From Blasia pusilla (taxonomy: Eukaryota): DNA of 64,000 bases. Shown one piece after another: positions 22,100 through 55,262 of the stretch. Below the pieces are notes generated by a model. That model was not told where the DNA came from. It did not search any database and saw nothing but the letters and a program-made list of their open reading frames with translations. The position numbers and the translations under genes were made by a program. The stretch lies in NCBI GenBank assembly GCA_050084515.1, contig CM114271.1, forward strand, positions 15,252,001 to 15,316,000, in the 5' to 3' direction. Numbering within the stretch: the stretch's first letter is position 1; the number at the start of each line of letters is the position of its first letter.

Positions 22100-24130
22100 G
22101 CGATATGTGTTGTGTAGCAATGTGTATGCGCACGACAGTGTCGTACACATACACATCGCTGGTCACATCTACACATCATAGAACACCGATCTTCCCAACA
22201 CAGGGGTCGATCCAGACATAAACGAAATACACTCACGCATATAGACCCAGACCGCACAACAAAATCAGAGAAAAAACGGCTCACCCAACCTAAACTCGAC
22301 TCTTGGATTTACATCCACCCCCCGCTATGAAGGAATCCGGATGCTAACGCCCTAATTCCTATACATATACAGACATGTGCAAGAGAGGTGCTCGTAAAGC
22401 CCAACATGAGAAAGATGGTTTGGTATATCCATCTTTCCCTCTCTTATACCATTATGAAGAGCCAAAAGGCTCTACCAAAAAAAAGAACCATCCGGATGGT
22501 AACCTGCATGCATATGTTACAAGATTACCGTGGACTCAATCAATGAATCACCTTACTGACAAAGACCATAATAGGGAAATCGACATAAACGCCATTCTCA
22601 ATGCAACAAATCTATTGCCAATCTTATCCGACATCTCAGGACGAAGTTACACCCGAACATCCGACAATGCAGACATACCAAAACTCTTCAATCCTGTGCG
22701 TCCTCGAAGACCTTCTAACTTCTGTTTTGCCAAAAAGAGGAGTACATTGTAAAGTGGCGTAGGTGTTCCAAAATAGCTCAAGATAATACTACTAGATCAA
22801 ATTACAAGGTAAATCATAATTTGCGTGCATGGTAAAATACAGAATGTTATGGTTGAAACAAGCACACTGTTGCAATGATAGTTTTATGCCCATGATTTTG
22901 AAGTGGAATCTCTCAACTTACTACATCCACCTGCAATGACTGAAACGAGCACCTTGTTCCAATACTAGTTTCATGATCCTGTCGATTTTGGCATGAAATC
23001 TAGACTTTTGGCATACATGGGGAAAATGGAAAAGGTAATTCCTTCCATGCTTGTGAGGATTTCTTCCGTCAACACAACATGTGATGAGCACAAGAGTCCA
23101 TTTTATAAAAAATGTCTACTTCTTCTAAAGATCAAACCTATCACTTCATTATGGCCTCTACATACACTCGGCCTCTACATACACTCGTCGTTATTTTTCT
23201 CACTATCTAACTTATCCATGTGTCCTTCAAGCGAATACAACAATTAATCCTCCTCTCCAATTCCCCCCTCTCAAGGCTGCACACTGGTTTGAATACATTC
23301 GAGTCCAGGGAAACGCATTATCCCATCTAGTAATCAAATTTCATTTCTTTTAAACCAACATCTTTCAATTGCAATAGAGATTTGCAAGGATGAACTAAAA
23401 ACTTATAAGATTTCACAATAAAATGGAGGTTTAAAACTGGAAACCCCTGCTACATTCATGGTTTGTTGCACCCAACATTTTGATACTTCCCACATGACTC
23501 GGACTTTCCCACATGACTCAGCCTATCTTTCGATTACAAATTATTATTCTGAGAGGCAAAGCCAGAATACTTACTCCATTCTGTGACTTGGGTGCGGCTA
23601 GTACATGCCATAGAAAAAGAGAGATTTCAACTTCCCCTCCCTTAATCAACCTTACACATAGGCACAAAACTCCACCACAAACTTCCAGAAATAGTCGTGA
23701 ACGGTAGAGATCCTCCCTATGGTGTGAAAATAAAAGAATTTAACGAGTGATCCTAAAGATAAGGAGTTTCTGCAATACCAGCTGCCTCCACCGGTAGATC
23801 GATACAACAGCACCCATGTTGAGAATTCTAGGTTGATTGATATGAAGTTGGCACCCAGCTAGCGGAACTACCTTATTGAGAATACCCTTCAAAACCCTAT
23901 GAAAGGCAAAGTTACTACAGATTCAGGGCCAAAGGTCTTGGGATAAGTTGTGAGACCTCCTGTGGAATAGAAACTTTCGACATTGACCAAAGCCTGCTTT
24001 GTACATATAGTAAGCTGAATGCGCTCATCAAAACTTCTACTAAAGGCAGTTTCGGTTCATTCTCTGTCTAAGTTGTTGCCAATATGATACATCTATTGGG
24101 TAAGCCTGCTTACTTGAGCCTCCTTCATTA

Positions 24131-30100: not shown

Positions 30101-33100
30101 ACAGTTAATAAATATTCCTTCCCTCCTGTTTCCTGCCACTTAATTGTAACTGAGCCTTCAGTAATAAATCGTATAGGTAACACAGATACACTAATCTTGA
30201 TAATGTAAGTGAGATACAGAACATGCAAATACTTGCACAAGTCACGGTAAAGGCCTTTCTGGTGATTTCAGTGATGGACATAACCCTAAATATGTGACGA
30301 CCAGTAAGACTGAAAAAAGTAAAATCTCCAGTTTCTTGACTGTGGAAGAATAAGAAACCCAAAACTTAACTCCATACAAAACTGGATTGTGACTCGAGAC
30401 CAGCAAGCAGAAGCCTACCTGCAGAGCAGATATTGTCTCTGCCATCTTGTTGTTCTCTGTCCCTCCATCAGCAAGATGTAAATTCAAGTCCTCGATGGCC
30501 TACAGATAATGCAAATCATTGAAGTTCTTAAACTAACTTCACTTGAGAACTAGGATTCGTGACAAAGGTCTGCCGTGACAAAGGTCTGCCGAGTTAGTCT
30601 CCCTAGAACTTGAAAGTGATAAATAATATTCTTCACCAATTCAAATTCACTAACTCACCTTCTTATGTTTCTCTTTTAAATTCAACACAGCAGTTTCATG
30701 GTTTCCCTCTGCTTCTTTCAACAAGGCTGCCATCTCCAATGCCATCTGTCCGCATACAACACTCTATTAGACACAGCTCATCAAAATACCCCAACAGTTG
30801 AATAACAAGAGAAAACAGATAAGAATCCAAGACACAAACCTGATCTTTCTCTGATGCTAATCGGCGAGATTCTGCTAGATTGTGCTCTTTCGCTTCCAGT
30901 GAGTGGCGAAGATCTTCAACTTCCTCTTTAAGCCTGATAAGTAATCCAACCATGAGGACCGGTACAGAATGCTAATAAAAAATTTATGGGCCTTCCTCTG
31001 TTCATCAGATACTTAAGAATTGAAAGAGTTTACAAAAGCAGATGATAATCAGACCACCCCTGAGGGGATACTCAAATACTCTTTAGATTAACAAAGAAGG
31101 GATTTACTTAGTGTTGGCCACTCGCAATTGCTGCCTCTCTGCACCCAGAGAACGGAGTGCTTCCCCACTCTGATGTCGGGTGCGTTCCAACTCATCTTGG
31201 AGTACAGCCTGTTTTGATAGGGCTTGAGCAGCCTTCTCACCAGCTGCTCCAAGTTGTGCTTCAACCTCTTCTTTCTCCTGAAGATGTGAACAATCAAAAT
31301 AATCTCCCATCAGAACCATGCAACTCAGAATGGGCCTATGACTGCTTACCACTGCATCCTCTACCATCAACATAACCTGCACGGACAACACCATTGACAC
31401 TGGACAAGTAACAGGAGCAAGTGTTGGGAAAAGACAAACCCTGCACCTTTTGAACTTCCTGAATACGCTGCTTTGCCCGTTTCTGCAAGCGCCCAAACTT
31501 TGCATCCAATTCTGCATACTTCACATCCAGCTCTGCGTACTTCTCATCTCGTTGTTTAGTCTCAATTTCCAACTTCCGCAGAGCTGCAGTAGCCCAATAT
31601 CATCAATGACCATCTGAAAACTCCTCTTAGCACAAACACACGAGATGGTAAGACTGCACGATGGGATCTACTCCTTTTAATGTAAGTGATCATAAGAAGT
31701 GTTGCATATGATGAATGGATAGCTAAAACGAATCCATCACTATAAATATTCAGGACAATTGGTCTTCTACAAGGCTTTACAACCAATCACACTCCCACTT
31801 TTCAACTCTGGAAGCTTTCCTATCATGTCTAAACTTCACGAAATTACACATTTGAGTTGAAAAAAGTCATAATGCAGCTCTCTTCTTTAAATATTCACCT
31901 TCCAAAGGAATCGAACTTCTGAACTTGTAAAGAATACACATGCATATGTTACTTGACTGTTTTTCAAATTCGCTGCATCTGCAGTAAGGTCTGCGATGAG
32001 ATAATATGCCTTTACTAGCTAGTAAGTTGCAGAAATACCAACTACCACTTACAAACTAGTGAAGGCTAATTTTCCTTCAGTGAGATACTGAGTTGGATAG
32101 TTACATTCTGTGGTCATTCTTGGAATTTTTGTCATATTGTGTACTAATTCTCAGCATTCAGATTATTGGTAAAGCTTCAAGAAATGATAGATTTCCAGTA
32201 CCTTCTGCAAGCTCATGTGAGAGTGCATCAACTCTCTGCTGGGCCTCAGCACATGCAGTGGAAAGATGTTTTACTTGGTCTTCAGCTGCTTGCTGACATT
32301 CCCTGCTTTCCCTCAAGTGTTCCTTCAATGTCAAAAGTTCTTGCAAGGTAGCAGCCTCCGGAAGTTGCTGTGACCCTGCTTCCAACTCCACAACCTCATA
32401 ATGCAGTCTATCGGCTGCGGCAGCTTGAGACTTGAAATCTTCAAGTTGTGCCATCAAACTCTTGTTTTGGGCTTTTAGTTCTGACATTTCAGAATGCAAT
32501 GAATTATCTACATCATTCAAGTTTACCAAATCCGATGACTCCTTCATTTGAACACTGCCGTTGTTTGGATCTTCCACTTTCTGGAAGCTAGATTCATCAG
32601 ATAAAAAATGTTGCTGAAGGGCTCTCACTTGCTCTTTCAAACTCACAACCTTTTTGCTACTTTCTTCTAGCTCCTTTTGAAGATTTGCTTTCTCTTGAAG
32701 CAATAATTGCACTTTATCTTCAGTCAATTCCCACTTCTGCTGCAAAACATAAGCATGCAAAATGGAGAAGGGCAGTCAAATTAAGAGTCTGAATAAAAAT
32801 AATTCCCATCAAGTGCACGCCAGGCTTTACACAGATTAGATACCACCACATGAGAAGAAGGAAGCTAAACAACTTCCAAGTCCTGAATGAGCCTCAAAAG
32901 AAAATTGGAAGCCCATCTCAGAAGGCATGCTCACTCATAGAGAATGAAGAATCGTCGGAGCTGTCTCTCATCAAGGAAATGAAAGGAAAAGAGAGGCAAA
33001 ACCATGAAAGACTATGGATATACATTCACACAGTTATGTGGAGACTGCCTAGATTATTTCAAAAAAAATCTAGTATTTTGCCCGGGTATTGCACAGCCTA

Positions 33101-36100
33101 CTAAGCTTGTGGAGAAGTAACAATCAGAAATGAATAAAGAGCATCACAAGAGTATCTACAGAAACAAATGCGACCACAAACTTGCAGCAGACTATTTCTG
33201 AACCGACCCCAACTACAGCCAGAAGCGCTTGAGAAAACAGAGAACAATTCAACCCATACTTGAAAAACAATTTAAGGGTAGCTTGAAAGATCCCAAAAAA
33301 AGCACACCCACCTCTGCTTCTTGTCCAGTTCCAGCAGCCTCCATCTACAATTACAAATTGTAGGTGTAAATCTCATTTCCCATTTGCTGATTTCACAACT
33401 CAATTGCATTGGATCCACATCTAATCTATGCTTTCCTTCCTTTTCCCATCAATTACACATCGATGTGTACCTTCTGCACGTAGATAAGGGGTTTCTATCA
33501 AATATCAATCTTTCCTTCAGGGTCCTAGGCGAAGTTCATTTAGTTATATGATAGGCTGCTTGATGAGTCTAGCAGCCAGGCAGTCCTTTGTGCAAAATCT
33601 CAACTCCAAGGCTCTAAGCAAGTGCCCACTTCATTAAAGACAACTTGGCGCTCTGCAAGTCTGGGAAATCAACTTGTCAAACCCATTGTTCAAGCAGAAA
33701 AGAACATTTCAACCAGGTAATAAGGTAATTTTCAGTTTTGTGGGCACGTCCCTGCATCCATGCTCCAATCTTCCACCAGCAGGCTCACAATGGAAGTTGC
33801 ATTACTTGGGCAGGAACCTCAGTCGTTTGGTCACTTCTAGCTAGCAATATTACTAGTATAAGACAAACGTGGGAGGGTTTTGAATGCAGCTTCATCCCGT
33901 CAGCAAGCCATAGTACCTACAAAACTCTGCCTACTGGTGTAAGGACCAATTTTCCCCAAAATCTGAGTTAAATCAGTCTACTTTGACAATCTGCTTCAAC
34001 ACTTGAGCCCTGATGTAAAAGACAAGATATTCACATGCAAGCTCTAATATTGGTTGCTCCAACAGTTCTCTACTCCTACTCCTGAAGAATATAGTAGGTT
34101 CATATTCTCTCAACTATCAACTCAACTGGCTAGCCAATCACGCCGACTACTTTTCATCCTAAGTGTGCACATAATATCTCATTGAGCAGGACACTGTCCA
34201 ATTCAATTACTTAAGATGACCAATGGTAGTGTATTATGCAAGAACGACAAGATTGCATGGACTTACTTCATCCAAACGATGCATGAGCTGGGACATAGCA
34301 GCCTCCTGCCCCTCCTGCGCAGCTCTCCGGGATGCTGCAATTTCCTCCATCTCCTGTGCACGCCAAAAAGCTTCAGCAATTATAGCATCAAATGCATGAA
34401 AACAAAGAGAAAATATTCCAGTTAGTTCATCTCAGAGAAACAGCCAAAGGCCTACCTTAATTTTTTCTTGAAGGTGTTTTTGAGTTTCAGCTAGAGATAC
34501 ATTTGCCTGCTCCAGTTCCTTGCATGTACTGAGACAGTCAATCACAAGTGAGAAAAGGATAACAGTCCTCATTAATGCATGTCTGGATGAAAATAAGTGC
34601 AAATAGTGCCTCCATGAAGAAGATTCCATTGATGCACACACTTCAGAGAAGATGGCCCATTTTCTGATAAACTCTCCCCAACTTGACACTGAGGCAAACT
34701 CGTAAAATCAGGACTTTTTCAACTGGAAAGGCAAGACCTACCTTGAATGCTGCGCTACCAGGTCTAAGTGGGCTCGGCTCATTTCATGACCCTCCTTTGA
34801 TATGCGCTCCATATCATCATGGGTGGTAGACATGCGTGTGAAAGCTTCTGCAACCTGCTCTGCTGCTGCCATCAGTTGGGTCTCGAGCTTCTCATTTGCC
34901 TGCCAATTCAGAAGTTGAATCGTCTTACATAGCGAGTTGTAAATTTGTTGAAATTTGTTGAAATGCATCAACACATGAAATAGTGTACATCAGAACAGGT
35001 ATTCCAAATTTCATAAAGTCTCAAGACCTTGGTTAGGTGCTCTACACGTTGCTGCGCATCTTGCTTTGCAAGTCGCAGTTCTTCATCAGCCTCTGCTATG
35101 GCTTCATTTTTTTGCTTTACCACAGATTCATTTTTCTGCTTCACTGCACTAAACAATTATCAAAGGTAAGTGAATTTACATTCCAAATTGTGAAGATTTT
35201 CTTGCATTTAACTTGGCGTGTGATTGTTCAAGTATAGCCGACTCCACTATCCCAACATGACTGACCAGTATTGTGACAATTTCAGGAGTCCACAACCAAC
35301 CAGTACCGATAAACCTATACAATCCTCACAAGACCATTCTCGACGGACAAACTTTTCTGAGAGCTCCACTTCCGACAAGCAGAGTCGTAGGCTGGTGAAC
35401 AAGGCGGCTACAAGGTTACAGCATCTTCATTGACGACAAAGCTCAATGCATGTTCAGGGACCGAAAACTATTTGGCAAAAGCTTGCGTAGATACATCTAG
35501 AAAAGCAAACTCTAGACTAGAGATGCTGTCGCCTCCAGCAACGGACGACGAAGAGACCAATATGATCGTAGGGCAAGAATTCCTAAGGCGTGTAGACTTC
35601 CTCAACGTAAATTCAGAAAATCCCAATGCAGCAATGCCGTAGTGCAGGGACGCTCATGAATAAATTTGCATTCCCTCGCCACATCAAAATCAACCATCCA
35701 AAAGCATTGGTTAACTCCTCACTCAATTCAGGCATAAAACCTCATTCAATTATAAGACGGGGTAGAGGTAGGCACGGGGAGAGAGTGGAGGTGTTATACA
35801 AGCAAGCTCGCACGCACACACAAAGATAATTACATTCGATAATTTCGTTCTCCAAGAGTTGCCTCTCTCTGGCAGCAACTTCTTCTCGTCTGCGCTTCTC
35901 TTCAATCTCTGCTCTCAGCTCTGCCCGCAACCTCTCCAGAGCCGCTTCCGCATCTTGGTCTGCTCCTCTGGCATCTTTGTGAGAGGAAACCTCGGAATCC
36001 GGGGAATGTGTAATTTCTCCATTGCTAACCTCCGAACCTGAAAGACTTTCACGATGCCTAGGACTACCTCCTTCAGATGCTAGGGAATTCACAGGTGAAG

Positions 36101-36353
36101 ACGCATCGATCGCACCGTTCCTTTCACTGACTGCGCTTCCGATCGCCGCGATCTGAGAATTCGTCTTGGAAACCGAGCCATTGAGAGCTCCTGCAGCAGC
36201 TTCAGCAGCCGCAGCTCGGCCTTCCGCGGCCTGAATTCTAGCTTGAAGCTCCGCTTGCTGCTTCTTTAGCGCAAGCTTGATCTTCTTCTTCATGGAGGCC
36301 ATTTCCGCTACCAGCCTCTCATTCTCAGCTTTCAGACGCTCCCCGGACTCCAT
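24131..36353 (-). CDS. GRIP: GRIP-domain coiled-coil golgin (AtGRIP-like), more than 20 exons
   Basis: ATG at 36353. Coiled-coil exons include 36353-35834, 35143-35028, 34899-34742, 34528-34456, 34353-34267, about 32737-32202, 31583-31447 (RDEKYAELD..KFGRLQKRAKQRIQE), 31277-31108 and about 28840-28711 (YKVRAYALLQKK). GRIP domain GVDMTYLKNVILKLLETG/EVEALLPVIAMLLQFSPEE lies at about 25030-24551. The last exon is 24268-24131. Some internal exon boundaries were not fully resolved. Confidence 0.9.
26121..26190. repeat. Intronic inverted repeat (24-bp stem, 2 mismatches)
   Basis: ACTGCCAGATCTGCACATATCATT ... AATGAGATGTGCAGGTCTGGCAGT. Confidence 0.8.
27840..27885. repeat. Intronic hairpin (21-bp stem, 1 mismatch, 4-nt loop)
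   Basis: AAGGCTGCACACTAAGATCCT-TGCT-AGGATCTAAGTGTGCAGCCTT. Confidence 0.8.
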
Positions 36354-37149
36354 CTTTCACCTCCTAGGTCAGACGTGCCAGATTTCCTCACGACCTCCCC
36401 GCTCTCCTCCCGCTCCCTCTACTTCCTCCTCCTCCTTCCCGCTACACTAACCCCATCGATCGGACCTCCATTTCCTCGCATTTCACTCTCCATCGCCTCT
36501 CTACTCCTCCTGATCCGCCCGATGCACCGAGCTCGCGCTCCCGATCCTTCCTCTCGCGTCCTCTGCGCTCCATCGATCCGCGGCTACACACCCTCCTCGC
36601 ACCCGGATTTCGTGACACACACCGATCATCTTGTGCTTTCGCCCGTGCAAAATCCTCTCCACTGCGCAGAAGCGCTCCTTCCGCTGGCGACGTCCGTCCG
36701 TCCGACCTGCAGAAGACGCTCGCCGCTCTACAACAACGCGCCCGTCGTCGTCGTCGTGAGGGCACGATGCGAGACGACGAGAAGGAGCCGATCTTGTTGA
36801 TTGGCCTTCGCATTGACCACCGGCGGAATGAGAGACGACGGGATGGGCCGAGGGCCGAGGCTTTACGGGGCTCCTCAGCTCACGTGCTCCGCCAGCTTCC
36901 CCGAATCCCCACGAACGCTATTTGTCGTCGTCGTCGTCGTCGTGCGGAAAGGAAATTAAATTGTCAACCATTTTACTTCAATATTTCTACGTCATTCATG
37001 ATGAAGAACACGAAACCTTCTTTATTTTCGAGGTTGTGTTGGTTACTATCATCGGATGGAGCTCCTCTACGGAATTGATACGAGAAAAGAAAGAGAATGC
37101 AAATCTTTTGCAACATTTAAATTCATATTAGAAAACACTTTTTATTTTC

Positions 37150-38169: not shown

Positions 38170-38640
38170 TTGATTTTAAGTGGCTTGAATAATTGTAGGG
38201 CAGTCGCCATGACAAACAACAAGAAAGATTTGATGAAAATCACCACCAAATATTATGAGTCTACTGCTAAATGGTAGTTTCCTTGGGTCATCATAATCCA
38301 CTCCCAAAATCTCATCTAAGATACAATTCACCACCTTAAATGCATAACTATGAGTCATAAACATCTTCTCCCATATAATAAGCCTTACACTTCGAATTAA
38401 GTGTGTTGCATTACTATTGACGGTTAAACTAAAAATCACACTATACAATGATTAAGTTAGAACTTGTATTATTTTACATATAGGAGCTTTTAATACTCGA
38501 ATGAAGGTAGCAACTATAATTCATAGATCTTAAGTAAATACTTACTTACAAGTATATTGATGGTAATCTTGAAGCGTAAATATATTGTGTGTCCTCGGTC
38601 TTTCTTATTCCATTAGGAATATCAATGAAAAATAATTGTG
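38170..38640 (-). mobile_element. Helitron PIF1-like helicase remnant (further decayed Helitron-like sequence may extend to about 41300)
   Basis: FFIDIPNGIRKT is a decayed Walker A region. VRLIIWEKMFMTHSYAFKVVN and LPFSSRLIIFGGDFHQIFLVV correspond to the Helitron consensus LIIWDEAPM..AFEAVD..PFGGK..GGDFRQILPVV. Confidence 0.75.
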
Positions 38641-39656
38641 TGAATGTTTGGTGCAACATTTTGGTATATTTTCTTGAGTTCATCATGTAGAACATATCAA
38701 GGATCACATCGTCATTTATTTAATTGCGCTTCTTCCAATAGTGATTATTCATGTATTCCTCTATATCATACATTCTTTTTTCTTTCTCTAAATATAAACA
38801 TGAATGCTCTCGATTGGTTGTGATCTTAATGGGGGTGTATGGAGCTCATATGAAAGTGCAATTGTCCACTTCAAGCCCATCAGTATGCAGATGTGCTTGA
38901 GCGGTGTTTCTTACTCCTCTCTCTCACATGTATTTGCTTTATCACTTTCTCTTCTATCCTTGAGTAGAGGGTAGGGAGGAAAGGTGTATCCGTACCACTT
39001 TGAGCATGTCCGCACTTGGATACACTTTTGCGGTCTCCACTCTCTCACTCTACTCCATCGCTCTTTGTCCGTTCTCTCTTGTTGCTCTACTTCTCTTGCG
39101 TTGTTGCTTGGTACTCTCATGCTACTGCATAGTCTCTCAAAGTTGGGCAACTCTCACCTTGTCTCTTAGCTAGCTCTCATGCCCTCAACATCTCTATCGC
39201 TCTCGATCTATTGATGCTTTTGTGCTTGCTCTCGGGGAGGCTTTTGACCTCTCTCTCCCCTCTCTCTCTCATCCTTGATCAATTCCTCTCTCTATAGAGA
39301 GAGGAACTGATCAAGGATGGAGAAGCAAGAGGTGATAGGAGAATGGGGATCATGCTAGCCCTCCACAAAATTTAAGGAGGCCACCTTTATTGATGATCTA
39401 GACTTAGGCTAGTTTTTTCATATATAGTGATGGTCATGTCATGACCATCATGCATGATCAGATTTTGAGTCTCAAAGCAAGGCGTCAACAAACATATATT
39501 TGGAATCTATACTTTAATTTGAAGAGGAGGGGGTTACCTCTTTTCGTAAGTATTTTTCCAAAAGAAGTGAAGCTTCTCCCGAAGTAGATATTCGAACAAT
39601 CCCCTTCAAGTAAAAAGTTTTAAAAAATACAATAGTAAAAGAGTCACTCCCTGTTT

Positions 39657-39814
39657 CCTATATTTTGAAAGTGATTTGATCCACAAAGTGTCCCTCCCCG
39701 TTGCCCTATATTTGAATGTCATTTGATCTACAAAGTGTCTCTCCTCTCAGCCCTATATTTGAATGTCATTTGATCTACAAAGTGTCTCTCCTCTTAGCCC
39801 TATATTTGAAAGTG
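39657..39814. repeat. 47-bp minisatellite, about 3.3 copies
   Basis: CCCTATATTTGAATGTCATTTGATCTACAAAGTGTCTCTCCTCTCAG units start at about 39657, 39704, 39751 and 39798. Confidence 0.85.
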
Positions 39815-41755
39815 TTGAAGAAAGTGGAGGCACCGTTAAATTGAAAGTGGTGAAAGAAGCTTGAGGAGTAGAGGAGACGCATTATTCCCCGAAGTTGTGG
39901 CATTTATAGTGAGGTTCATGCATTTTTGCCCTTTGGAGATGATTTGAGAAATTGGAGGTGCACGTGAAATCAGTTGTAGGTTGCTCAAGACCACTTGGAG
40001 GCTGTTGTAGCAATTGCAGAAAAATTTGGAGGATCTACAGGTGCGTTATTTAATTGTTTCTTTCTCAACTTAGGAAATTGCGTGTTTTGTTGGATCATTT
40101 CAATTTTCCTGCCCCATTTATTCACTAAGATTGTGGCACCAGACTCTGAATGCACTTTTGCTACAATCAAAAAACTAAATCCTTATAGTGGACTTTAAAC
40201 TCTTCCCATCGCAAGTACTCGAGTACGCTAGTGTTAATCGACCATGATCGCAAGAGCCTCTCATTGTTTTAAAGAGCAATTTTGTGTTCGAAATTAGCTG
40301 TCGCACAATCAATACAAATCTATTTCAATACCGCTTGTTGTAAATGAATCACTTATCTGAAAAAGTTGCATATATGAACATACCTCATGGTTCTGCAGAT
40401 TGCGGGCTACGGGTCCAAGGCACGACATGAGGGGTATATCTCTGTCATGGAACCCAATGTATGATGATTGGTAGTACTATTCAAACTCCTTTGTAATTGC
40501 AACTTCCTAATATCACTCTCTTGGAAATTTTGTCTCCTTGCAAGATTGAGTAATGTATTTTATCTTACAACCCTATCAATAGTAGACAATAGAGGAATTG
40601 TGGAATCACTTGGTAAGGTGCAACTTTGTGGAGGCAACACAACTCCACTGAGAGTGGAAGACACGGGATCTACTCTTGACCTTACTTCATCCCCAACATG
40701 GGGAAGAGTTATAGAATTATCTATGATTTCATGTTCACCTTGATTAGGAAAAGTGGTAGGTAAGTCAACTCGTGGTGATGCATGAGTAGTGGGCCTGATT
40801 GTGGATGCATTCTTAATAGCTTCATGGAGTGCACTGTTAGGTAATTCGACTCTTGGCGACTTATCAATGTGCTCTATATGAGCTCCTTCAATTTCTCCCA
40901 CTATTACTCCATCCTCTCGCCTTGGTGATATATAAATGTCCTCTATGTGAGCTCCTTGATTTTCTCCCAATATTACTCCATCCTCATTGGAAGGCCTGAA
41001 AAAATAAAGAATAGGTCAACATACAAATCAAATATGAACATTTAATGGGTTTAACACACAACTCTAATTACATGAAATTAGATATATATACCTTATGAGT
41101 CAGCAGTCGAAATGTCCATATTTGGAATATTCTCAACAACCAAAGCAGACTCAACTTCAACATGAAGCGCTTTTCTTCTTTTTCTATACTCTCAATAGTA
41201 TGTTCTATTTTTCTCTTTGAGACCTTCCATTTTATCAACGCGAAAAACACGTTTTTGTTTTTTGGCTTCGCAGAGAGGAACTTTTCGGAAATCACATTTA
41301 TCGATAGGATTTAAGGGAATAGGAAGTCTGGAGCAACACATCCATATTACAAAGAAAGAAAATGAAATTTTAAGTTAGAATTATATAGGGCAGAAATATA
41401 TTAGATTTGCATAATGTTCGTCAATGAAGTGAACTCACGTTGAAGATGTTTCGAGGGCGAGTTATTGTGCACATGTACATCACTGTCACCAAACACACAC
41501 ACAAACACGCACGATCCCATGCTAACTCATGGCATCCAAACAACGAGACAAGAAGTACCAAAATATCTCCAATTGCCCCCTAGGTGGTGGTTAGGTCCCT
41601 CTAACTCCAGATAGCCATCTATCCCTACCTACCATGACATACATCTCTCGGACGCTAAGAGCAAGAAGGCCGGGTGCTCATGTGGCCCCATCGTTAGTCG
41701 CCTTCTTGTCATCCATATCAGAGACACAAGTCGGAATGTAGAACTACCGACTCTA

Positions 41756-41893
41756 TGTACATCTGGGACACATCCATCGTCCCTAAGGAACCCTAGTGAG
41801 AGGTGGCGTCAAACATGCCATATGCCATCCTCTCGAACACGCATCACAGACTAGCATAGTGGATGCACCATCGATGGAACCACACAACATACA
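41756..41893 (-). pseudogene. PHD finger at the integrase C-terminus
   Basis: CMLCGSIDGASTMLVCDACSRGWHMACLTPPLTRVP*GRWMCPRC has the C4HC3 spacing, interrupted by one in-frame TAG. Confidence 0.9.
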
Positions 41894-42099
41894 CCGCAAG
41901 CCTATAGGAATTATTGCTAAGCTCGGATCAACTGTACCGTCAATTTTCGGAAGATGATATGGCGCACAGTTACGCACATGGTCCTTCCAAACCATACCAT
42001 CGCATTCCTCCAATAAGAGAACATCGGATGGCAAAACCTCACGCACTCTCAAGATGGTGTGCCTTATAGTCACATCCAACATCGTGGGTGCCGTCTGCT

Positions 42100-42785
42100 G
42101 CAAGTAGGCATAGTCTCCTTGATGAAACCTCCGGATAGTAGATCAATAATCACCTCCCCGAATAGTCGCATACCTCAACGTATCCTGATGTTGCGCAATC
42201 GCCAAGTTTTCAAACGCCATGGACATCACTCTCTGAAACAACTCATCCCTCTCAGAATATGCTCGCATCCATATATCAGGGTCATCAAGGTTCAACACCT
42301 CACCAACATCTCGACGAATGGCCGTAGGTAAATCTGGCTCTTGGCCATACAAAAGCAAGTACGGTGAGAAAGACGCTAAGGATGCCTGCCTGCTGAATCG
42401 GTATCCCATGGCCAACCACGGCAACTAGAGGTCCCAATCTCCTAGGTGACCTCTTTGCAAGCCATACTTGCGTAGTCCTCTCTTCACCATCTGCACAACC
42501 CGCTCCGCTAGTCCATCCGCCTCAGGATGATCTCTCGAAGTAGTGCGGTGGTCGATCACTGCCTGCTCACACAAGGCCTCAAACTCCCCGCGGACCTCTG
42601 TACCCTGATCTGTCAACACCTCAACTCGTGCGCGGTAATGACTCAACACTCGATCTAGGAAGGCATACGCTACTCCCTCACTTGCTTTGTCCGGAAATGC
42701 AACCAACTCTATTTGCTTTGAGAAGTGCTCGACCATCACCAACACATGACGACTATGGCGCTTCGTCAAAGGCAAAGGTCTTGCA
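42100..42785 (-). pseudogene. Retroviral-type (rve) integrase core and C-terminal region
   Basis: PLPLTKRHSRHVLVMVEHFSK..VLTDQGTE..IDHRTTSRDHPEADGLAERVVQMVKRGL..WDL*LPWLAMGYR..SFSPYLLLYGQEP. Confidence 0.9.
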
Positions 42786-42789
42786 AAAG

Positions 42790-43700
42790 CGGCTTTGCAA
42801 TCAAGCTAAAACCCTTGACATACTGTCGATAGAAGTTTGCCAATCCCATGAATGCACGAACTCGACTCACATCCATAGGGCGTGAAATGCATGAAATAGC
42901 CTCTATCTTCGTCTATTGCACACGAAGGCCCCTTGGGTACATCATATGACCCAGGTACTCAATCTGGTCGTAGAAGAACTTGCACTTGCCTAGATATAGC
43001 TTCAGCCCATGTAATTGCAATCGTCAAAAGACCTCCTCTAGATGTCCTTCATGCTTCTCAACCGTAGTGCTAAAGACTATGATGTCATCAATATAACACC
43101 TAGCAAAATCCAGACTTGCCAAGATCCTATCCATAACCCTTTGAAACTCAGTCGGGGCATTCTTTAACCCAACTGGTAAGAATCTCCACTAGTACAAGCA
43201 ATCCTTCCCGTGAGGATCAATGCCCCAAAATGCCGTCTTTTTCCTGTCCTCCAATCTGATAGGCAATTGATGGTATCTGGCTCGAAGATCCAATGAAATG
43301 AAGACCTTTGCATGCCCAATCGCATCAAAGATCTCCTCAAGGGTGGGCATGACATACCTATCGGACTTTGTCTACTGATTGATGGGTTGGTAATCTCCAC
43401 ACATCCGCTTATTCGTCTAGTTGCCATGCACATCCTTCTTGGCGGGCATGATAGTGGCAGATGCATACTCTCCATGCGACATCTCCACTAGTCTTGCTCC
43501 TACTCTGAATCAAAGCCCTCTCCATGTCAGTGTACCTGTAGGGTCGTCGAAAGATCGGCGTGTCACTTGACAACTCAATGCAGATCCTTGGACCCTTCAG
43601 CGTACCCAAATCATGCATACTAAATGCAAAACAACTCCTATAACTCCTAAGGAACTGGAGTATCCGACGCTGCTCTCCTCCTGTCAACTTAGGACCCATA
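42790..43700 (-). pseudogene. Ty3/gypsy reverse transcriptase
   Basis: PIFRRPYRY, RMCGDYQPIN, RYVMPTLEEIFD, SLDLRARYHQLPI, KTAFWG, LPVGLKNAPTEFQRVMD, CYIDDIIVFS (YIDD at 43084-43095), KCKFF..IEYLGH and VRAFMGLANFYRQYVKGFSLIAKPL. Confidence 0.93.
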
Positions 43701-44019
43701 TTTGGCTCCCAAGTCTCCATCGTGACTATGGTAGGACTCTCGTGGTTGCTATGGTGCAACCCCGTCTCAAACAATAGAACTCTTATCTCCATGTGTAGTA
43801 CCCAGAACCACACTCAATGCTGTGGCTACCATCTCCTGGCGTACTTGCAAAACATCCCAAGAAGTCCAAGGGTATCTCTCCCGATCATCCCTGGTGTGTC
43901 GATCTCCTCGAGTCTCGCCCCCAGCCATTGCCTCAACCATCTTGGTAGGCATGGGGCTCACCAACGCAAGAGCTGTGATCTGTCACATCCTCAAACGACG
44001 TTGCTCAGCTGCTCCTAAG

Positions 44020-44970
44020 CTAAAAATCCATGTCAAGCAGTTCAGGTCCATCGCCTAACCCAAGATATGACGTCGTAATGCCTCCGATAGTGATGGTACT
44101 ACCGTCACTCCTGTGGGGAATCCTATCGCTCCCTCTCACTCATCGGCGTTGGGCTCCACCAACTAGTGTACTTGGTCATCCCAAACCAAGTCAGGTCCGG
44201 CCTCCTTGAATGCATAGGAAGCGGAAAAACTCACCAATATGGGAAAGGTTGCCCGTGGCGTGCCAATCTTGTTGACCACAGTCAATGTCGGTCGATCATC
44301 TAGCCTCACTGCCTGTGATCGATGGCCCGGATCCAATATAGAATCCACCAACAAATCGGAGGGACGATCCACTCTCGCATAAGCCCTCCGCAACACCTCA
44401 TGTGGTACCAAGTTGGTCCACCAAAGATGCGGGCGATGTGCTCTAGAACCTGCACTCGCCGTATCTAACAATATTGCGGGGCTGATCCATGCGCACACGT
44501 GATGTGCACTCGTCACCACGCGGGACCTCGAATCGCCCAAAATCGGCACATTCTCCAAAATGTACGTTGGAGAACGAGGCTGATGCTCTTGTAAATGTCA
44601 CAAGATCCGCATCATCTCCCAAAATAACCTGGACCGAGTGTCAACTTACCCGCTATCTCGTCCAGCACTCAATTGGCCCTGACACGGCCAACCAGCAATG
44701 ACCATGTCTCTATGGTCCCTACCCGCTCCAAGTCCTGCGCCCCCAACAATGAAATGTCCCTCGGTAGGGAACTCTGGTATCCCTAAATGGCAGACGCTAA
44801 CAACAAGTTGGGAAAACGGAGGCGTAACAGCGCCACATGGTGAAGTAAAGCGCGCCTCGCAAAATCATCAATCTCCACATACAGGTACCGCTGCACGCGG
44901 ACTCCAGTGTGCAAAACAACAGCTAACCCAGTGTTGATCCCTCCAAAGAGATCCAACACCAGAATAACCT
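44020..44970 (-). pseudogene. DNMT3-like C5-cytosine DNA methyltransferase domain embedded in the retroelement polyprotein
   Basis: Motifs occur in canonical order: I VLDLFGGINTGL, II YLYVEID, III RDISLL, IV DMVIAGWPCQG (PCQ at 44679-44687), RSRLFWEMMRIL, VI YILENV, VIII RAHRPHLWWTNL, IX EPNADE*EGAIGFPTGVT and X RRHILG*AMD. Confidence 0.9.
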
Positions 44971-45379
44971 CCTTTGGGATGCACCACACAATTGGGGTGG
45001 TGTCCAAAGAGGTCATAGCAGCACTCCTACCTACCTGGGGTTCCTCTGACCCGTCAGGCTATGGTGCAAACGTCTTGCTCCACGCGGTCTGCACATGCTT
45101 GATGGCTAAGCGTTGAAGCTCCTCAGTCGAGCCCCAAAGCGGCACCTCTCCTCCACGGACTTATGCGGTTACCATGACACTCCTCTCCATAGAAATGTCA
45201 GGAACGGGAGTATCCTCTACATGGACATGTCCCTCAATCAAATCACTACGCCAAGTGATGGCACTACTAAATGTTGCTAAGGTCGCCATCTCTCTTGGCT
45301 GTCGCTCGATCACTGCACTTGTGAATCGAACGGGTAATGACCTAAGGCGCCCATCACCTCACTGCCATCCTGGTCTGTG

Positions 45380-45700
45380 GAACGCTGACTCCTCCTAGTA
45401 ATCCAGGGAAAATCCCATGAGGTATAACACTGCTCCACCAACCAAGATGTTGTAGGACTCTGCATCAATCACTATCGCCTTGCTCGCACCACGGACTCAT
45501 CTGTAGGATGTTCTGGGCGAATCCTCACCACGACCTTCTGTCAGGTGATATATTGTGTGGTACTTGCTCCATCCAAGGATTTCTGTATCCAGAATGGACA
45601 ATGCTCCACATCGGCTCTCGTCAAGTCCAATCCTCTGAATGACGCTTTCCCCAACATATAGAGTTGCGCTCTTGAATCCAACAAGACGTGTTGCGGACTA
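45380..45700 (-). pseudogene. Aspartic protease (retropepsin)
   Basis: HVLLDSRAQLYMLG is a decayed LLDSGA motif (Asp codon at 45676-45678). A downstream YNILVGG-like motif lies near 45440-45460. Confidence 0.7.
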
Positions 45701-46199
45701 AAAGCTCTACCTCCGGGACTCACCAACTCGAAGACCTCTCCATGGTTATCCAACAACACAACACTAGTAGAAGCCATGGCATGCTCTATCGCGGGTCTAA
45801 CGGGCATCTCCGCCATCCTAGCAGCTGCAACCTGCCATGAATTTGATGTGGATGGCCCGAGCATCCGCTCCAAGGGCAGGTCCATCACCTCCTCTGCAAT
45901 CACCTCTGAATGTGTTGCAGGAACTCCAACTCCACGCTCACATAGCGTAGCGGCCAGCCAAAAAACCTCGACGGGCGTACCTCCCAACGTCATAACATCG
46001 GAAGCGAAAAATAAAAGAGAGCGGTACACAACGGTAGCCGCCCCCAACAATGTGCTTGACACATGCCCCTCGAGAGCATCAACAATAGGAGTCGTTGTAC
46101 TCGCTTCTCCCATCGCCCTCCGTGCCTGCACACCAACAACATCACCAACTCTCCAGGAACTCTAATCAAGACCCATCGATGGGGTCTTCATTGCCTTGG

Positions 46200-47950
46200 A
46201 CAACGTGAAAGATTGAGGAAGACTAGTCTATTTCATGGCTTTCCCTCGCTGTGGATCCACCTGTGCGGCTACTCCATGCATCATAATTGCGATGGCCTCC
46301 ATCTGGGCAACCCCGCACATCCAATCGGGATCTTCCTTATCTCTGACTGCTCCATATGATGTCGATGCCACGGATCCGGCATCGGGTAACCTCAAGGCCA
46401 GAGCGACAATATGCTCTTGTAGCTGATTTATCTTAGCAGCCATCCCAGCCTCACGCCCGACGTCTCCCTCGACGTGTCTAGGTGATGGGACTCTACCTCC
46501 TCCACGGGCAGCTCCACCACCTTGTCCGACAACTCCATCTCCTCGTCCCCCAACAAGACCACCTAGTACACCATCTCTAGGCCCACCGGACCAGCTACTC
46601 GCTCTAGTGTCCTCTCTGGCCCTCGGTCCGGACGTAACTCAGGGTGTAAACTGAAACATATGGCGCGTGTATAACCATACCTCTGACAATAGTCACACTC
46701 ATAACCTCTTGTTGTTGCACCATCTCTCCTCCATGCTGAGACACACGTCCATGACCCTAACGAGTGCAATCACGCTGATGATGGGCTCCACCACATGACC
46801 AACAAGTAATCATAGACGACTGCTGCTGAGCGGCATATGAAGGCGTAGGTCTCTGTGGCATAGCCTCTTGGTATCCTCCTAGAGCTCGTGGTGCCAAAGT
46901 CAACCTATCTCGGAGTCCACTTTGTTGCACTAGTGGTGTAGACAATCGTGACTGCTCTCACCCAAAACCTATGGTGGCTACGCTCTCCTTCACCATGTTG
47001 CACTCAATATTCTCGGCTGTCCTAAAAACATCTCTCAATATAGAGGAGGTGTTCATAAGAAGCATCCCCTCCCGCACCCGTGTCCATAGGGTCCGGTCCA
47101 GCATCGCGTACCATGACTGGATACCCTGAGCCTCTATCACCTATGAGTGACGTTGATCAATCGGCGCAGGCGAGTGTAAGCCTCACGTAAACTCTCACCC
47201 GAGCACCTCTGGAAGTCATGGATGCTCTGCAACTTCTCCGTCCGTACCCCTTGGTAGCTCGCCCCCAACTCAACGAAAAACTCAACCACGGGGTTAAACT
47301 TGGGACGAACCCGACTAGACGGTGCAACTGCTCCAGTGCAACCTCCTAAAACATCACTAGTGGAAGAGGAAGTAGCCTCTCTTGACTCCTCCTCCTCATC
47401 TGGGAACGGCTCCGTCCATGACACATAGTCTGGGTCATAGTAGAGTCGCCATGCCTCAATCTCTTGGGCATGTCTGTGGGAGAACTCATGGGCACCTCCT
47501 CATGTTTAGAGGGGGTGCCCGTCCATGGGCACCCCCTCTAAATGCTAGAACATACCATTGCATGTTGTAAACGGGTTGAACCCTCTAGAGTTCCTAGCCC
47601 GCTGTGAGTCACACCAACTCCTAAACTCCGCAATGAAGTCGTGTAGCTCTATAGTGCCTACAACACGTGAAAACCTACGCGGTCCTCTATCTCGGTCGTC
47701 CATCTTGTACGCCCAACTAGTAGGACCACTCAATGTGTACGGTGGATCACTAACACACTCCTCTACACGTTTCCCCTCGTCTGAAGATAACATAGAAGGA
47801 GATCGAGGTGGTCTCTCACGTGGAGGCCCTCAAAACCTCGCACCACTCCGGGTAAACCCTCCAAAGCTACTCTCAGGTCCACTACCTTGCCTCGAAAGGA
47901 TGCCGTGATGACCCTTGTGCCCCTCTCTCGCAGTCACTCTCAACCTTGCG
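46200..47950 (-). pseudogene. gag-like region with two zinc knuckles
   Basis: RFSRVVGTIELHDFIAEFRSWC and FQRCSGESLREAYTRLRRL; one intact knuckle CWSCGGAHHQRDC (CX2CX4HX4C) and one degenerate knuckle CDYCQRYGYTRAIC. Confidence 0.75.
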
Positions 47951-50900
47951 TGTAATCACTCGATCATTCAATCTAACATATGGCACTCAATCCACACTCT
48001 CTCACTGAGACGTGTACTGTGCGGCAACAAGCGGCGTGGTGTGGCAATCGGCTACTGTCCTATCATCTCATCGATAAGACACACCCTCAACTATGGACAT
48101 CCCACACACGTCTATGTCCCCTAAACCCATACATCAATGATGCTTTAAGCATATGCACGAAACCCAATGTCCCCAATTAAGTGCCCAATACCCGTAATTC
48201 CCTCATACGTATAGGGTAAGAGACCACAATGGGTAACCTGATAATAATGTCAATGCCGCTCCTCGACAACTACAATCTCAACCCAAACTCGGTCATGAAG
48301 ACAACTCCTCCAATCAGCAAGTCGTACTCTTCTTGTACTGACACTGCTCGAACCTTCTCGATGTGCGGTGCAGATCCAACAGTCCGGTGCGGCACTGGCG
48401 GCACGGAACGGCTACAAACGGCACGACACTCAAGAATGAGATGCGGCACTCGACGGCATACCCTCCTCAATCAAAAATTCACACGCTCTGCTCCTTAGTG
48501 AAGGAGCGGCTCCGCGATTGAGACGATGCGGTGCGGCCATGAGCGGCACCGCGCAGCAATCAGCGGCGAGTTGTGGCTACGGGCGTCACGGCACGGTACT
48601 CAATTATCATCAAGCGGCTACCAATCACAACATAGCAGGATGAAATGAAAACTCAAACACCATAACCCGATGTCACCTGCCATCACTGGTTGATGACAAA
48701 AATGCGATGACGGTGATGAACAAACCAAAGTACGTGGTGGCGGCACAAGTCAGAGAATCAACAGTGGTCGTGGAAGACCCTCCACTCCGTAATGGCGGTA
48801 ATGGCAACCAAGGGTGGACAACGGCCAAACACGGCTCTAAGCATCGCTCGGCGGCGGTGGCGGACAATGGATGGTGGACAGTGGACCATTGATGGTGACG
48901 GTTGACCATCGATGATGACGGTTGACCATTGTTGGTGACTATGACCGCAACAGCCGCCGCCGCTGCGGCGGATGGTTTAGGGTTGAATAATTTAACCTTA
49001 AAAATTGCCTAGCAATTGAAAATTTTCAAGATTGATCATAACTTTTTGCTTGCAACTTCAAATTGTGCACCGTTTGTTGCACAACATGCACAACTTCACG
49101 ATCTATGACAGTGTCAAAAAATATTTTGAATCGGACATTCTAGTAAATACTGACGGGGATTGTCGTAAAGCCCAATGTCTCTTTCTCCTACACAAAATTC
49201 GGCAGCGCTTCCGCGCTAATTTCTTCCAACGAAAATATAAAACCTGTGAGAACAAAAATCAGCAAGCTACATGGTGCTCCCAAGAGCACCGGCATGGAGC
49301 AATCCGCCCCCATACTCAATTGCTATCGAAAATTGGGCAGCGCTTCCGCGTGCCATTTTCCTGTCCAGAAAACTAGCAAAGCAAAACAGCAAACTCGCAT
49401 GGCTCTTGCTCCGGTGAGCACTCCCATGAGCCATGAAGCCAGGAACATGGTCTCCCAACCTGCAGCAAACTTCGAGCAACCAGCGAGCTCTCCCATGAAG
49501 CTCTCTCACTCACACATTCTCTCTTTGTAAAATAAAGATCCAATCTCTCTCACAACACGATAGTTCTCACATGTGTGCACTCTCACATGTCTCCCTCAAT
49601 GTCAAACCAAACCCATTCTCCTAATGAGAGGCTTGGGTTACACTCACAAGGCAAGGGACCATAGTTCCGCCGCCTCATGCCAAGAGGTTCAACAAAGAGA
49701 GAATGAGCTCTCAAACTCTCTCTCCTTGAGGTATACCCCTCCCATCTCCCAAACTCTCTCCATCGTAACCTATGTTCTCAAGTCACCTCCTTGGCTCTTG
49801 ACCTGATGTAGGAGGTCAAGGGCCACTTACCAAAAATATAAAGTTGATCATTTACTCAAAATGGTACTTACCTAAAATAGTAAGTTCCTCAATATGGCTG
49901 TAAATGAGCCGAAACAAAGGGGAAACCTGCTCTCTCAGGTTTCCTAGGGCCTCAGTAGGTCATCCTTGACCTACTGAGCCTGTCCTCCACTACTCACAAC
50001 GGCGCTCTACTAGATCTCACTGATCAATCCTAAAAGACATGACAAGTTCCCTTCGATTTCCTCGTATATGGTCACATCCCATGACTAAACTCCATCTTTC
50101 CTGGTATAATTATTCACTCCTTCAAGCATACCTCAAATCTTTATAATGACAAGCAATAGGAAGTCACTAGCACGTCTAAGAAGCATAGTTTGAGTTTTGC
50201 ATTTAAACCCGGTGCACATTTTTAAGCGAGCAAAATCTCTATGCCGCAATTTAGAAAGAAATGACAGATATCAACTCACATAGCCATCAACACATACGAC
50301 AACGCATACCATAAGGAAATGTCTTCATTTTGCATGAATAGGAAGAGCAAACCGTACAAACAACTCGAAAGAAATGAAGACTAGACCTAGAGCTTAGTCA
50401 CATAAGTCTAGTTATATTGTGTGATAAGTTCAACCAAATTAATGAGAGATTCATTTCATTGAGGTTAACGAATGTTTGCTCTCCAATCTTCACAACATAC
50501 AACCACATGATGAAGTTCTTTTCGATGCATATGTTGATTTCAGAGCTCATTCAATAAATGATAACGAATCGTGAGAGGACTCACTTGAGCAAAGTTTCTT
50601 GACTAGTGGCCTTGCAAGGTCAATAGTCACTCTTAGACACGTTTGGGTATAGGAGATTAAAATTTTGATATTTTCCTAAGGCATAACTTACATTGTTATG
50701 CTTAAAACACACATGCTTAAGAGAGATTTTTTCATGAAGTAAGAGTCAGTTTTAGAGCCAATAATTTATTTCACGAAAAAGGCTTCATTCAATACTTTAT
50801 CGTAGTGACACTAGCAAAGCGTAGCCTCGCCTTTGCAAAATTTATAGTATGATTTGCTTACGTGGCACTCCTTGTTTCTACAAGCTTATATGGTATGTAC

Positions 50901-53522: not shown

Positions 53523-55262
53523 ATGGCGAAATTAATTATGCTCGGGCACTCGGATTCTGCGGGTTCTCCTATGTTTGCGAGCGCGTCTGGATCGATCATC
53601 CGCGCTCGCTGCTCTCCCGCGATGAATCGCACCGCACTCGCTGCCGTTTGTCGTCCCAAAGAGTGCGGCTCTTTCAGGAGCGGCGGTCTTCGTGGAGGAC
53701 AACAAAGCTCTCATCGGAGTACGCCCGCTCCGGTCAGTTTGAACGGCCGCTCAATCGATCTTCGCAGTCGTGAGGGGCACGTCGGAGCGCCGCACAGAGT
53801 GGTTCAGAGGACGCGGGATCATCTTCGTCCGAAGGCGCGGAGATTCGGCAGTAGAGTATTTGCGAGTTCGAGTTCGAATTCTGCAAAGTCGAGTGCTGAT
53901 GCCGATGAGGAGGAAGAGGGCAGAGGGGGAGAACAGGGGAGAGTTGACGAGAGTGCTCTTCCAACGATGGAGGACATAAAGAGGGTGGCCGAGAGGCAGG
54001 GGATGAAGCTGGAGATTCGGACTCTGGGGCCGTGGTTTCAAATCAATGCGACGAGTCTGGACGGAACGCTGCTGCTGGGCACGGCGGAGGGGTTTGAGAA
54101 GTGGTGGCTTCAGGGGCGTTTGCTGCATTTGGAATCCATCAGATTGACCCGCGAAGCGTCACAGCAATTTACGGGATCGATTTTGGGACCTGCATTTCTC
54201 GTTGGCGCCGCTGCAGTTCGGCACGGCTTGGATCGGAATTGCCCGACCGCTGAGCTGCTCGCCATTTTTGACGACGAGGCCACCCACTCTAAGGTTCGTA
54301 CGACTGTGTGCATTCTTCATCCCATCGTTTCCATCTCCAATTGCCACACTCAGTTGTCGGGAGGAAAATTGCGGTGTTCCTGAGTGAGTGGAAATCCCTC
54401 GCGAGTAGCACATGTAAGCACTTAACTAAGAGATGTCCGCGCTGACGTCGAAGAGTTACAGCACTTGGCTTTACACTGGAAGGAGGATTGAAGGGGAAAA
54501 TTGTAAAATAGTCCTGAATCCTGTCGAAATTCGGTCCAAGGATCACTTATTCCCTGGCGCGGCGAGTGGAGTGCGCGCTCATCATAGAACTTGCTAATGC
54601 TGCTTTCCTGCCTTCGTAACGTGTCTCCGATTCGGAGGAAAGTGCTGCGCCACCAGCTTCCCTAGGCTCGGATGGTGGGGGTGCCCTTTCGGTCAACATT
54701 TCGCCTGTGCTAGTTATTCTGCCGAGGGCAAGAACGCAGCTGACTAACGATTCTCGTGAGGTCCAAATCTCTCGTCTCCCATCTCTGGCGCGTAATCATA
54801 GGTGAGTCTGGAGTGGGAGGAAAACCGTGGGCCGCACTCTGATTGCAATCACGCGGAGCCCAATTTGCGGCAGAGAAAGAGCGATTGAAAGAGTAGAGCG
54901 TCGTCGACGTCCTCAGACCCGTCGAAGTACGATAAGAATCGATCTTCAACGCTATGTTGTGGACATAAGCATCTCACGAAAGCATCAATCAGGATCACTG
55001 ATAAGAAAATGGGTGGTCGGTGAGTGTGCAGCTGGTTAAGTACTACAGTCGACTCGGTTTCCAGGCGATGTACGAAGTAGAAGGAGAGGGATGGAACGAC
55101 ATAGCTAATAGAGTTGTGTGGGGAGGAGTCGGCACACGGATGGATGCAAACTGTGAGGAATTGCTCACGAAATGGTCCCGAGCTCTTCGACCCAAAGACA
55201 GGGAGGCGATTTCAAGGCCAAGCAAGGGCTTTTCGCCGGTAGCTCAAAAGGTGCAACAATAA
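53523..55262 (+). CDS. Conserved uncharacterised GNAT-fold-like protein, probably plastid-targeted (2 exons)
   Basis: Exon 1 53523-54293 and exon 2 55032-55262 join in frame. The N-terminus is Ser/Arg/Ala-rich like a transit peptide. The core LHLESIRL..AELLAIFDD..HSKLVKYYSRLGF..VWGGVGTRM resembles a plant/cyanobacterial family as I recall it. The start codon is uncertain (53523, 53538 or 53571). Confidence 0.8.

Follow-up and report, generated by a model that had tools for sequence, protein, structure and literature searches.

The window, that is, the whole stretch of 64 000 nucleotides that was analysed, contains a decayed copy of a gypsy-type retroelement at 50044-41476 on the minus strand. 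The stretch flagged in an earlier note on this DNA is the methyltransferase domain of this element, which sits between the protease (PR) and the reverse transcriptase (RT). An N-acetyltransferase-like host gene lies nearby at 53523-54380 (plus strand); four of its five protein matches carry organism names and all four are liverwort proteins (Marchantia and Riccia, 45-64% identity), in agreement with the land-plant genome that had been proposed. The features of the element are given below in its reading direction, followed by a relic of the same family from elsewhere in the window.

49526-50044, minus: A1, the 5' terminal repeat, beginning TGTCATG; 91% match to the A part of the solo A-B (21491-22017)
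47689-49525, minus: leader between A1 and gag; no protein match upstream of 47706 (tblastn with relatives)
46632-47688, minus: gag, broken by frame changes; tblastn with P0073, P0074 and P0077, 37-47% identity
46804-46766, minus: CCHC zinc knuckle in gag (motif location)
45493-46452, minus: protease region (tblastn collinearity)
44714-45058, minus: N-part of the methyltransferase (DNMT) domain, motifs I-III; 115 aa with one in-frame stop, read-through P0002
44956-44924, minus: motif I, LDLFGGINTGL (motif location)
44025-44711, minus: C-part of the DNMT domain, motifs IV-X; 229 aa with five in-frame stops, read-through P0001
44693-44676, minus: motif IV, GWPCQG, containing PCQ (motif location)
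44555-44544, minus: motif VI, ENVP, containing ENV (motif location)
44444-44412, minus: motif VIII, RAHRPHLWWTN, in which RAHRPH holds Arg-x-Arg (motif location)
44126-44103, minus: motif IX, IGFPTGVT (motif location)
44075-44058, minus: motif X, RRHILG (motif location)
42781-43711, minus: RT; tblastn, 61-67% identity to the RT of P0072 and P0087
43095-43075, minus: RT motif YIDDIIV (motif location)
42781-42790, minus: point of an internal deletion, where RNase H and the zinc-binding domain of the integrase are missing; RT matches stop at 42781 and integrase matches begin at 42787
42452-42787, minus: integrase core of the DDE type; Pfam rve, E 8.4e-9, 75% identity to P0094
41756-41893, minus: C-terminal PHD finger with one in-frame stop; Pfam PHD, E 7.2e-8
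41576-41592, minus: polypurine-like motif AACCACCACCTAGGGGG directly before B1; the same motif stands before B1 in five of five relatives examined
41476-41575, minus: B1, the 3' repeat, broken off, with its last ~30 nt, A2 and B2 absent; 96% match to the B part of the solo (22014-22104)
21491-22136, plus: solo A-B junction of the same family, A and B contiguous, comparable to a solo LTR

Read-through translation of 45058-44025 (minus strand) gives a C5 cytosine methyltransferase domain whose motifs, I to X, are in linear order; its bounds reach slightly past the 44970-44020 noted earlier. The two parts were translated straight through the breaks, with X placed at stops. All of the motifs that had been listed for the domain were found: motifs I, IV, VI, VIII, IX and X follow one another in that reading order from 44956 down to 44058, the N-part also has a stretch YLYVEIDD, and RLFWEMMRIL is also present in the C-part. 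By motif positions, the window's domain does not have the DRM-type order (motifs VI-X before I-IV). Three-frame reading of the minus strand placed the C-part one frame off the N-part, with the frame change near 44712, and brought the breaks in the domain to six in-frame stops plus this one frame change. At 44707, a length difference of two letters relative to the window is seen in 151 of 189 DNA reads from its organism, and the reads disclosed several further length differences that are peculiar to the window copy.

The search against PF00145 that had been suggested as a check gave no match for any of the four raw open-reading-frame pieces of the domain. The read-through C-part was matched at E 7.5e-9 (35.9 bits, cut-off 22), the match being limited to motifs IV-VI. 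The N-part alone gave no Pfam match; aligned with the motif I-III region of relatives, it showed 56% identity. Searched against 5.8 billion database proteins, the C-part matched relatives at E values down to 2e-91, which places its identity far beyond chance, and its best solved relatives were DNMT3A chains (E 7.7e-5).

In tblastn comparisons, Marchantia polyproteins aligned collinearly with the window from gag and PR over DNMT and RT to integrase (IN); identity was 37-48% for gag and PR, 54-60% for the DNMT C-part and 61-82% for RT. A protease-like motif, VLLDSRAQ, was located at 45687-45664 (minus strand), where the active-site place reads DSR; at the matching place the relative P0115 gave an Asp_protease_2 match of 22 bits, below the cut-off of 24.3. 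With this motif on one side and the start of RT near 43711 on the other, the domain lies between protease and RT as had been described. RVT_1 matched one RT piece of the window weakly, and no primer-binding site was recognised by search. The Pol order PR-RT-RH-IN with a DDE integrase was found, of which PR, RT and the IN core remain in the window, RNase H (RH) being deleted; the full order is seen in P0115, an uninterrupted protein of 2188 aa with CCHC, protease, DNA_methylase, RVT_1, RT_RNaseH, H2C2 and rve domains (Pfam), and the gypsy-type pol of the earlier note is thus borne out. At 42788, 624 DNA reads of the window's organism continue into sequence that is absent from the window, so the deletion is peculiar to the window copy or to a subset of copies. 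This copy cannot work, as its previous description as dead had it: six stops and a frame change interrupt the domain, RNase H is deleted along with the integrase zinc finger, and the 3' repeats are lost.

The ends of the element were defined with the help of relatives' loci fetched from metagenome contigs (50 loci). A layout A1-internal-B1-A2-B2 was found in five of them (L034, L035, L043, L037 and L050, of which L035 and L043 are the same locus, leaving four distinct), with A of ~340 bp, B of ~115 bp and element ends reading TGTCATG...CACGACA; in relatives' loci a polypurine-like motif (AACCACCAGCTAGGGGGG) stands directly before B1. Target duplications of 4 bp (CATA, AAGG and AATC) flank three of the four distinct loci, and TG..CA ends together with 4-bp duplications are as made by DDE integrases. 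No LTR pair was found in the five relatives or in the reads of the window's organism, split direct repeats A1..B1-A2-B2 being present instead. At 41476, 1608 DNA reads continue into the B end ...CGCACGACA, which is absent from the window, and reads join 50044 back to 41476 (B to A) as well as 41573 to 49535 (A to B). The B-to-A joints carry 32-34 letters between, in DNA and RNA reads alike; the commonest form of A-to-B joint is seen in 274 DNA reads. The assignment to Ty3/gypsy therefore stands for the Pol, whereas the ends are split direct repeats and not LTRs.

Self-comparison of the window showed that 41479-41569 and 49520-50045 stand contiguous at 21491-22104. An insertion of 7950 bp into a host repeat, with duplication of 4 bp, was considered for this arrangement and rejected, the flanks being the element's own A1 and B1. 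Loss of A2 by recombination between B1 and B2 was likewise rejected, given that the flanks are A1 and B1 and that 21491-22136 is a solo A-B, and a cut of the window copy at the polypurine tract was discarded once B1 had been recognised beyond the tract via relatives and reads. No family protein matches were found near the solo A-B 21491-22136 (tblastn with relatives). An apparent inverted B end directly follows it (21491-22170), and no target duplication was seen there. Among the DNA reads, A-to-B joints are about twice as numerous as B-to-A joints (about 140), a ratio of ~2:1 that would fit roughly equal numbers of solo A-B relics and full copies.

DNA and RNA reads of the window's organism were mapped at a likeness of at least 90%. 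In the three DNMT bins the DNA depth was 194-329, compared with 1.3-6.4 for the left flank and 0.08-0.15 for the right, which indicates that siblings number about a hundred or more and possibly thousands. Of 43746 mapped DNA reads, 38577 are only 90-95% alike to the window, so that the window copy is an old family member. The better siblings that had been surmised do exist, in that reads of the window's organism contain sequence lost in the window copy. In three RNA runs the element is covered throughout on a single strand (3.0-8.8 versus 0-0.62 on the other strand in the DNMT bins), with higher cover over A, B and the 3' part than over the DNMT bins. If the libraries are of the usual type, this RNA is the sense strand of the element; most of the RNA reads are 90-95% alike, and the transcripts hence come from siblings.

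At E of 0.001 or below, the C-part was matched by 65 proteins of about its own length and by 29 that are longer. Identity reaches 65% among the named sources, which are Calypogeia fissa, Marchantia polymorpha, M. paleacea, Riccia sorocarpa, Sphagnum troendelagicum and S. fallax. Collinear gag-PR-DNMT-RT-RH-IN polyproteins are present in Marchantia, Calypogeia, Riccia, Sphagnum and Closterium; the Marchantia protein P0072, for instance, shows DNA_methylase, RVT_1 and RNase H in order (Pfam), and the PF00145 scores of relatives are 26-46 bits. A profile of the domain matched 9779 cluster representatives at E of 0.001 or below and 428 clusters (50% identity) at E of 1e-30 or below, and the best 150 profile matches were all element proteins, long or partial. 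An atlas search with the relative P0003 returned PF00145 clusters only among its matches, the first one being streptophyte. The family is large and old, and the methyltransferase is an integral part of it and not a one-off capture; it is not unique to this genome.

Two architectures were distinguished among the relatives, RT-RH-DNMT-IN-PHD (45 complete rows plus partials) and DNMT before RT (13 rows). A FastTree phylogeny of 169 domains and the window C-part split cleanly in two with an SH-like support of 99; with a midpoint root only, all 98 RT-first rows fell on one side and all six DNMT-first rows together with the window on the other. Named members are liverworts, mosses and Closterium on the DNMT-first side and Scenedesmus and Chromochloris on the RT-first side, organisms having been named for four of 30 representatives looked up, Klebsormidium not among them. 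The streptophyte clade (DNMT before RT) thus appears to have a chlorophyte sister clade (DNMT after RNase H). Pfam found rve and Integrase_H2C2 in relatives and no Phage_integrase (tyrosine recombinase) in the 11 relatives with RT or integrase domains, of 14 scanned. In the chlorophyte-type relatives P0096, P0101, P0109, P0113 and P0169 the DNMT follows RNase H, and P0096 has a G-patch domain between DNMT and integrase.

Selection on the domain was estimated from the C-part of the window and those 23 metagenome loci that gave a single, full-length match; in 22 of these loci the domain contains stops. For 22 of the loci dN to the window was about 0.27-0.34, and for the distant L033 it was 0.52. 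The dN/dS ratio was 0.049-0.186 against the 18 computable loci and had a median of 0.149 over 39 pairs with dS of at least 1, both being approximate owing to saturated dS. Close pairs gave medians of 0.49-0.64, as expected if much of the difference arose after insertion. The domain appears from these approximate ratios to have evolved under purifying selection, and the dN/dS comparison called for earlier argues against neutrality. The stops that fill the domain of the window copy, and the similar breakage of most metagenome copies, are what would be seen if a host DNMT3 gene or pseudogene had been inserted once in this copy and had since evolved neutrally. This reading, which had been named beforehand as one that would overturn the proposal, has virtually no chance of being correct. 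The domain is found at the same polyprotein place in Marchantia, Calypogeia, Sphagnum and Closterium, its identity is intermediate between those of PR and RT, the ratios against distant copies are as low as about 0.05-0.19, and DNA reads over the domain stand at 194-329 versus 0.1-6.4 in the flanks; a one-off insertion is refuted by the family-wide presence of the domain.

The kinship of the domain was assessed with a family profile run against all solved chains, in which 54 sequences were listed at E of 0.01 or below:

DNMT3A: 74.4 bits, E 7e-20
DNMT3B and DNMT3C: 63.8 bits
"DNA methyltransferase" 4onj/4onq, which we take to be tobacco DRM: 38-41 bits
DRM2: 34 bits
M.HhaI: 27.8 bits
DNMT2: 26 bits

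No DNMT1 chain was among the 54. A predicted model of the relative P0003 (mean pLDDT 65.6, pTM 0.72) was compared with Foldseek, and all 36 listed rows were DNMT3A or 3B (best E 2e-13, TM up to 0.66). The domain thus appears closer to DNMT3 than to DNMT1, DNMT2, DRM or the bacterial enzymes; its putative DNMT3 membership rests on the ranking by profile and fold. The DNMT3-like and linear character claimed for it is supported by the same rankings. With the host enzymes (DNMT3A/3B and plant DNMT3), which gave the best profile and Foldseek matches, it shares the fold and the linear motif order; identity to human DNMT3A/B is about 20%, and the family domain differs from host DNMT3 in having no PWWP or ADD and in standing inside a retroelement polyprotein present in a hundred or more copies. 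Plant DRMs, which are related to DNMT3 and perform de novo methylation, are circularly permuted; the N-terminal block of the family (profile 24-153) pairs with the C-terminal half of DRM (223-350), as expected for a permuted enzyme.

Conservation was counted in alignment columns, strict patterns giving under-counts (PC[QN] in 97 of 169). The motif IV Cys is kept in 168 of 169 domains, the motif VI Glu in all 169 and its Asn in 160, and both Arg residues of the motif VIII Arg-x-Arg in 166 each. These counts bear on the idea that the family keeps the domain for a role other than DNA methylation, either methylation of the element's RNA or, in the manner of DNMT3L, recruitment or blocking of host DNMT3 without catalysis. 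Such a role was suggested by the Klebsormidium Gypsy-DNMT3 domain, which produced no methylation in yeast, a result that its authors call inconclusive, and RNA methylation was raised by the same authors for a LINE-borne DNMT (PMC5890265). It is considered unlikely, as a purely structural partner would not need the catalytic Cys, Glu-Asn and Arg-x-Arg that are kept in 160-169 of 169 domains, and the nearest enzymes by sequence and fold are those acting on DNA, DNMT3A/B, and not DNMT2 (26 bits).

The best explanation overall, which we regard as probable, is that the window contains a dead copy of a DNMT3-carrying gypsy-type family together with the self-methylation role proposed for it. In working copies the methyltransferase would be made as part of the polyprotein and would then methylate the new cDNA of the element or its insertion site de novo, so that the new copy would be born with host-like methylation. 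Taken by itself, this last part, de novo methylation of the own cDNA or insertion site, is put at not quite an even chance by analogy with dinoflagellate DIRS-borne DNMT3 domains, which methylate CG de novo in yeast (PMC5890265) and are the only, and indirect, experimental support. Counting against the explanation are the lack of methylation in yeast by the Klebsormidium domain, the stops in most metagenome copies and a CpG ratio of the element that is no lower than in much of the window. An enzyme acting mainly in trans was weighed against methylation in cis, through which a high-copy, transcribed family would alter the host methylome and not its own cDNA. The hundred or more copies and the sense RNA in the window's organism are in its favour, as is the fact that a trans effect was raised for Symbiodinium (PMC5890265); against it, the methylome of Klebsormidium was reported to be plant-like despite such elements, though these are fewer there (PMC5890265), and action mainly in trans is judged improbable.

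The PHD finger is common to both clades of the family (Pfam of relatives). Among solved structures it is matched best by the PHD fingers of CHD4, PHF12, KAT6A, DPF2/3, KDM5, PHF21A, ATXR5, UHRF1 and AIRE, most of which read unmethylated H3K4 or the unmodified H3 tail. By analogy the finger may tether the integrase to silent chromatin and would then steer integration to places unmethylated at H3K4, as chromodomains do in chromoviruses. Chromoviruses (Ty3/gypsy) have in common with the family a chromatin-reader module at the C-terminus of a DDE integrase; in the present family the putative reader is a PHD finger, a DNMT is carried and there are no LTRs. A wider proposition, offered only tentatively and in our opinion rather doubtful, is that of a streptophyte lineage of gypsy-type elements, DNMT3-carrying and PHD-tipped, that would have persisted from Closterium to liverworts and mosses, is transcribed at high copy and would constitute a transposon-borne de novo methylation module which marks new insertions and may feed host methylomes. 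In this module a DNMT3 catalytic domain would be paired with a reader of unmethylated H3K4, much as ADD and catalytic domain are combined in animal DNMT3.

This kind of element is already published for a charophyte, Klebsormidium nitens (KnitGypsy-Dnmt3; de Mendoza et al. 2018, PMC5890265), and the family of the window is a further member. As described there, KnitGypsy-Dnmt3 likewise has an unpermuted DNMT3-type domain inside a gypsy-type Pol, a DIRS-like repeat layout rather than LTRs, purifying selection on the domain and a streptophyte host; by this comparison, which is one of descriptions and not of sequences, the present family differs in its liverwort-like land-plant host and far higher copy number. 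The word PHD is absent from the text of that paper on Gypsy-DNMT3 elements. The A-coding-B-A-B layout is given there for SymbioDIRS-Dnmt3 of Symbiodinium and said to be common to the gypsy-like KnitGypsy-Dnmt3 (PMC5890265). SymbioDIRS-Dnmt3 thus shares with the window's family the DNMT3-type domain in Pol and the A-coding-B-A-B repeats; CG de novo methylation in yeast has been shown for SymbioDIRS-Dnmt3, and it uses a tyrosine recombinase, whereas in the window's family the integrase is of the DDE type (rve plus H2C2), with TG..CA ends and 4-bp duplications. EpiLTRs (bioRxiv 10.64898/2026.05.21.726589) are LTR-type elements that likewise carry a cytosine methyltransferase and a chromatin reader, but are described in Cymbomonas and Euglena with a DNMT4-related domain, an adenine methyltransferase and a chromodomain, and are set apart from the streptophyte Gypsy-DNMT3 in the same preprint.

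The name "streptophytes (Gypsy-DNMT3)" is used in that preprint and in PMC12344493, and PMC6338049 describes such transposons as not present in land plants "such as tracheophytes". The earlier note knew of no characterised embryophyte example, which holds in so far as none from a bryophyte or other land plant was found named in the literature searched, where passages of Marchantia and moss methylation papers make no mention of such an element; the supplementary trees of later papers may contain such sequences. The family is widespread in liverworts, mosses and algae and unremarked in public annotations, in which its proteins are filed as hypothetical proteins or plain DNA methyltransferases. 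Retrotransposons that carry their hosts' silencing enzyme are known from dinoflagellates and one charophyte alga; what the present family adds is its range in land plants, a high copy number accompanied by transcription, the position of the DNMT ahead of RT, and the PHD finger. Liverworts and mosses commonly carry the family, among them the transformable model Marchantia polymorpha, which opens the benefit of the enzyme to the element to genetic tests in a land plant that is easy to work with. Transposon copies may inflate the counts of "DNMT3 genes" in bryophyte genomes.

The CpG observed/expected ratio of the element is 0.73, no lower than that of much of the window (0.44-1.15), and depletion of CpG and CWG was uninformative for the element. 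The value of 0.44 belongs to a long coiled-coil host gene with exons at 29860-36356 (minus strand). An open reading frame at 38176-38451 (minus strand) contains ...IIFGGDFHQI... and may be a fragment of a PIF1/Helitron-type helicase, which it resembles. Short tandem repeats lie at 39638-39810, and two 65-nt tandem units, 86% alike, were found at 40852-40985 within the open reading frame 40560-41015 (minus strand).
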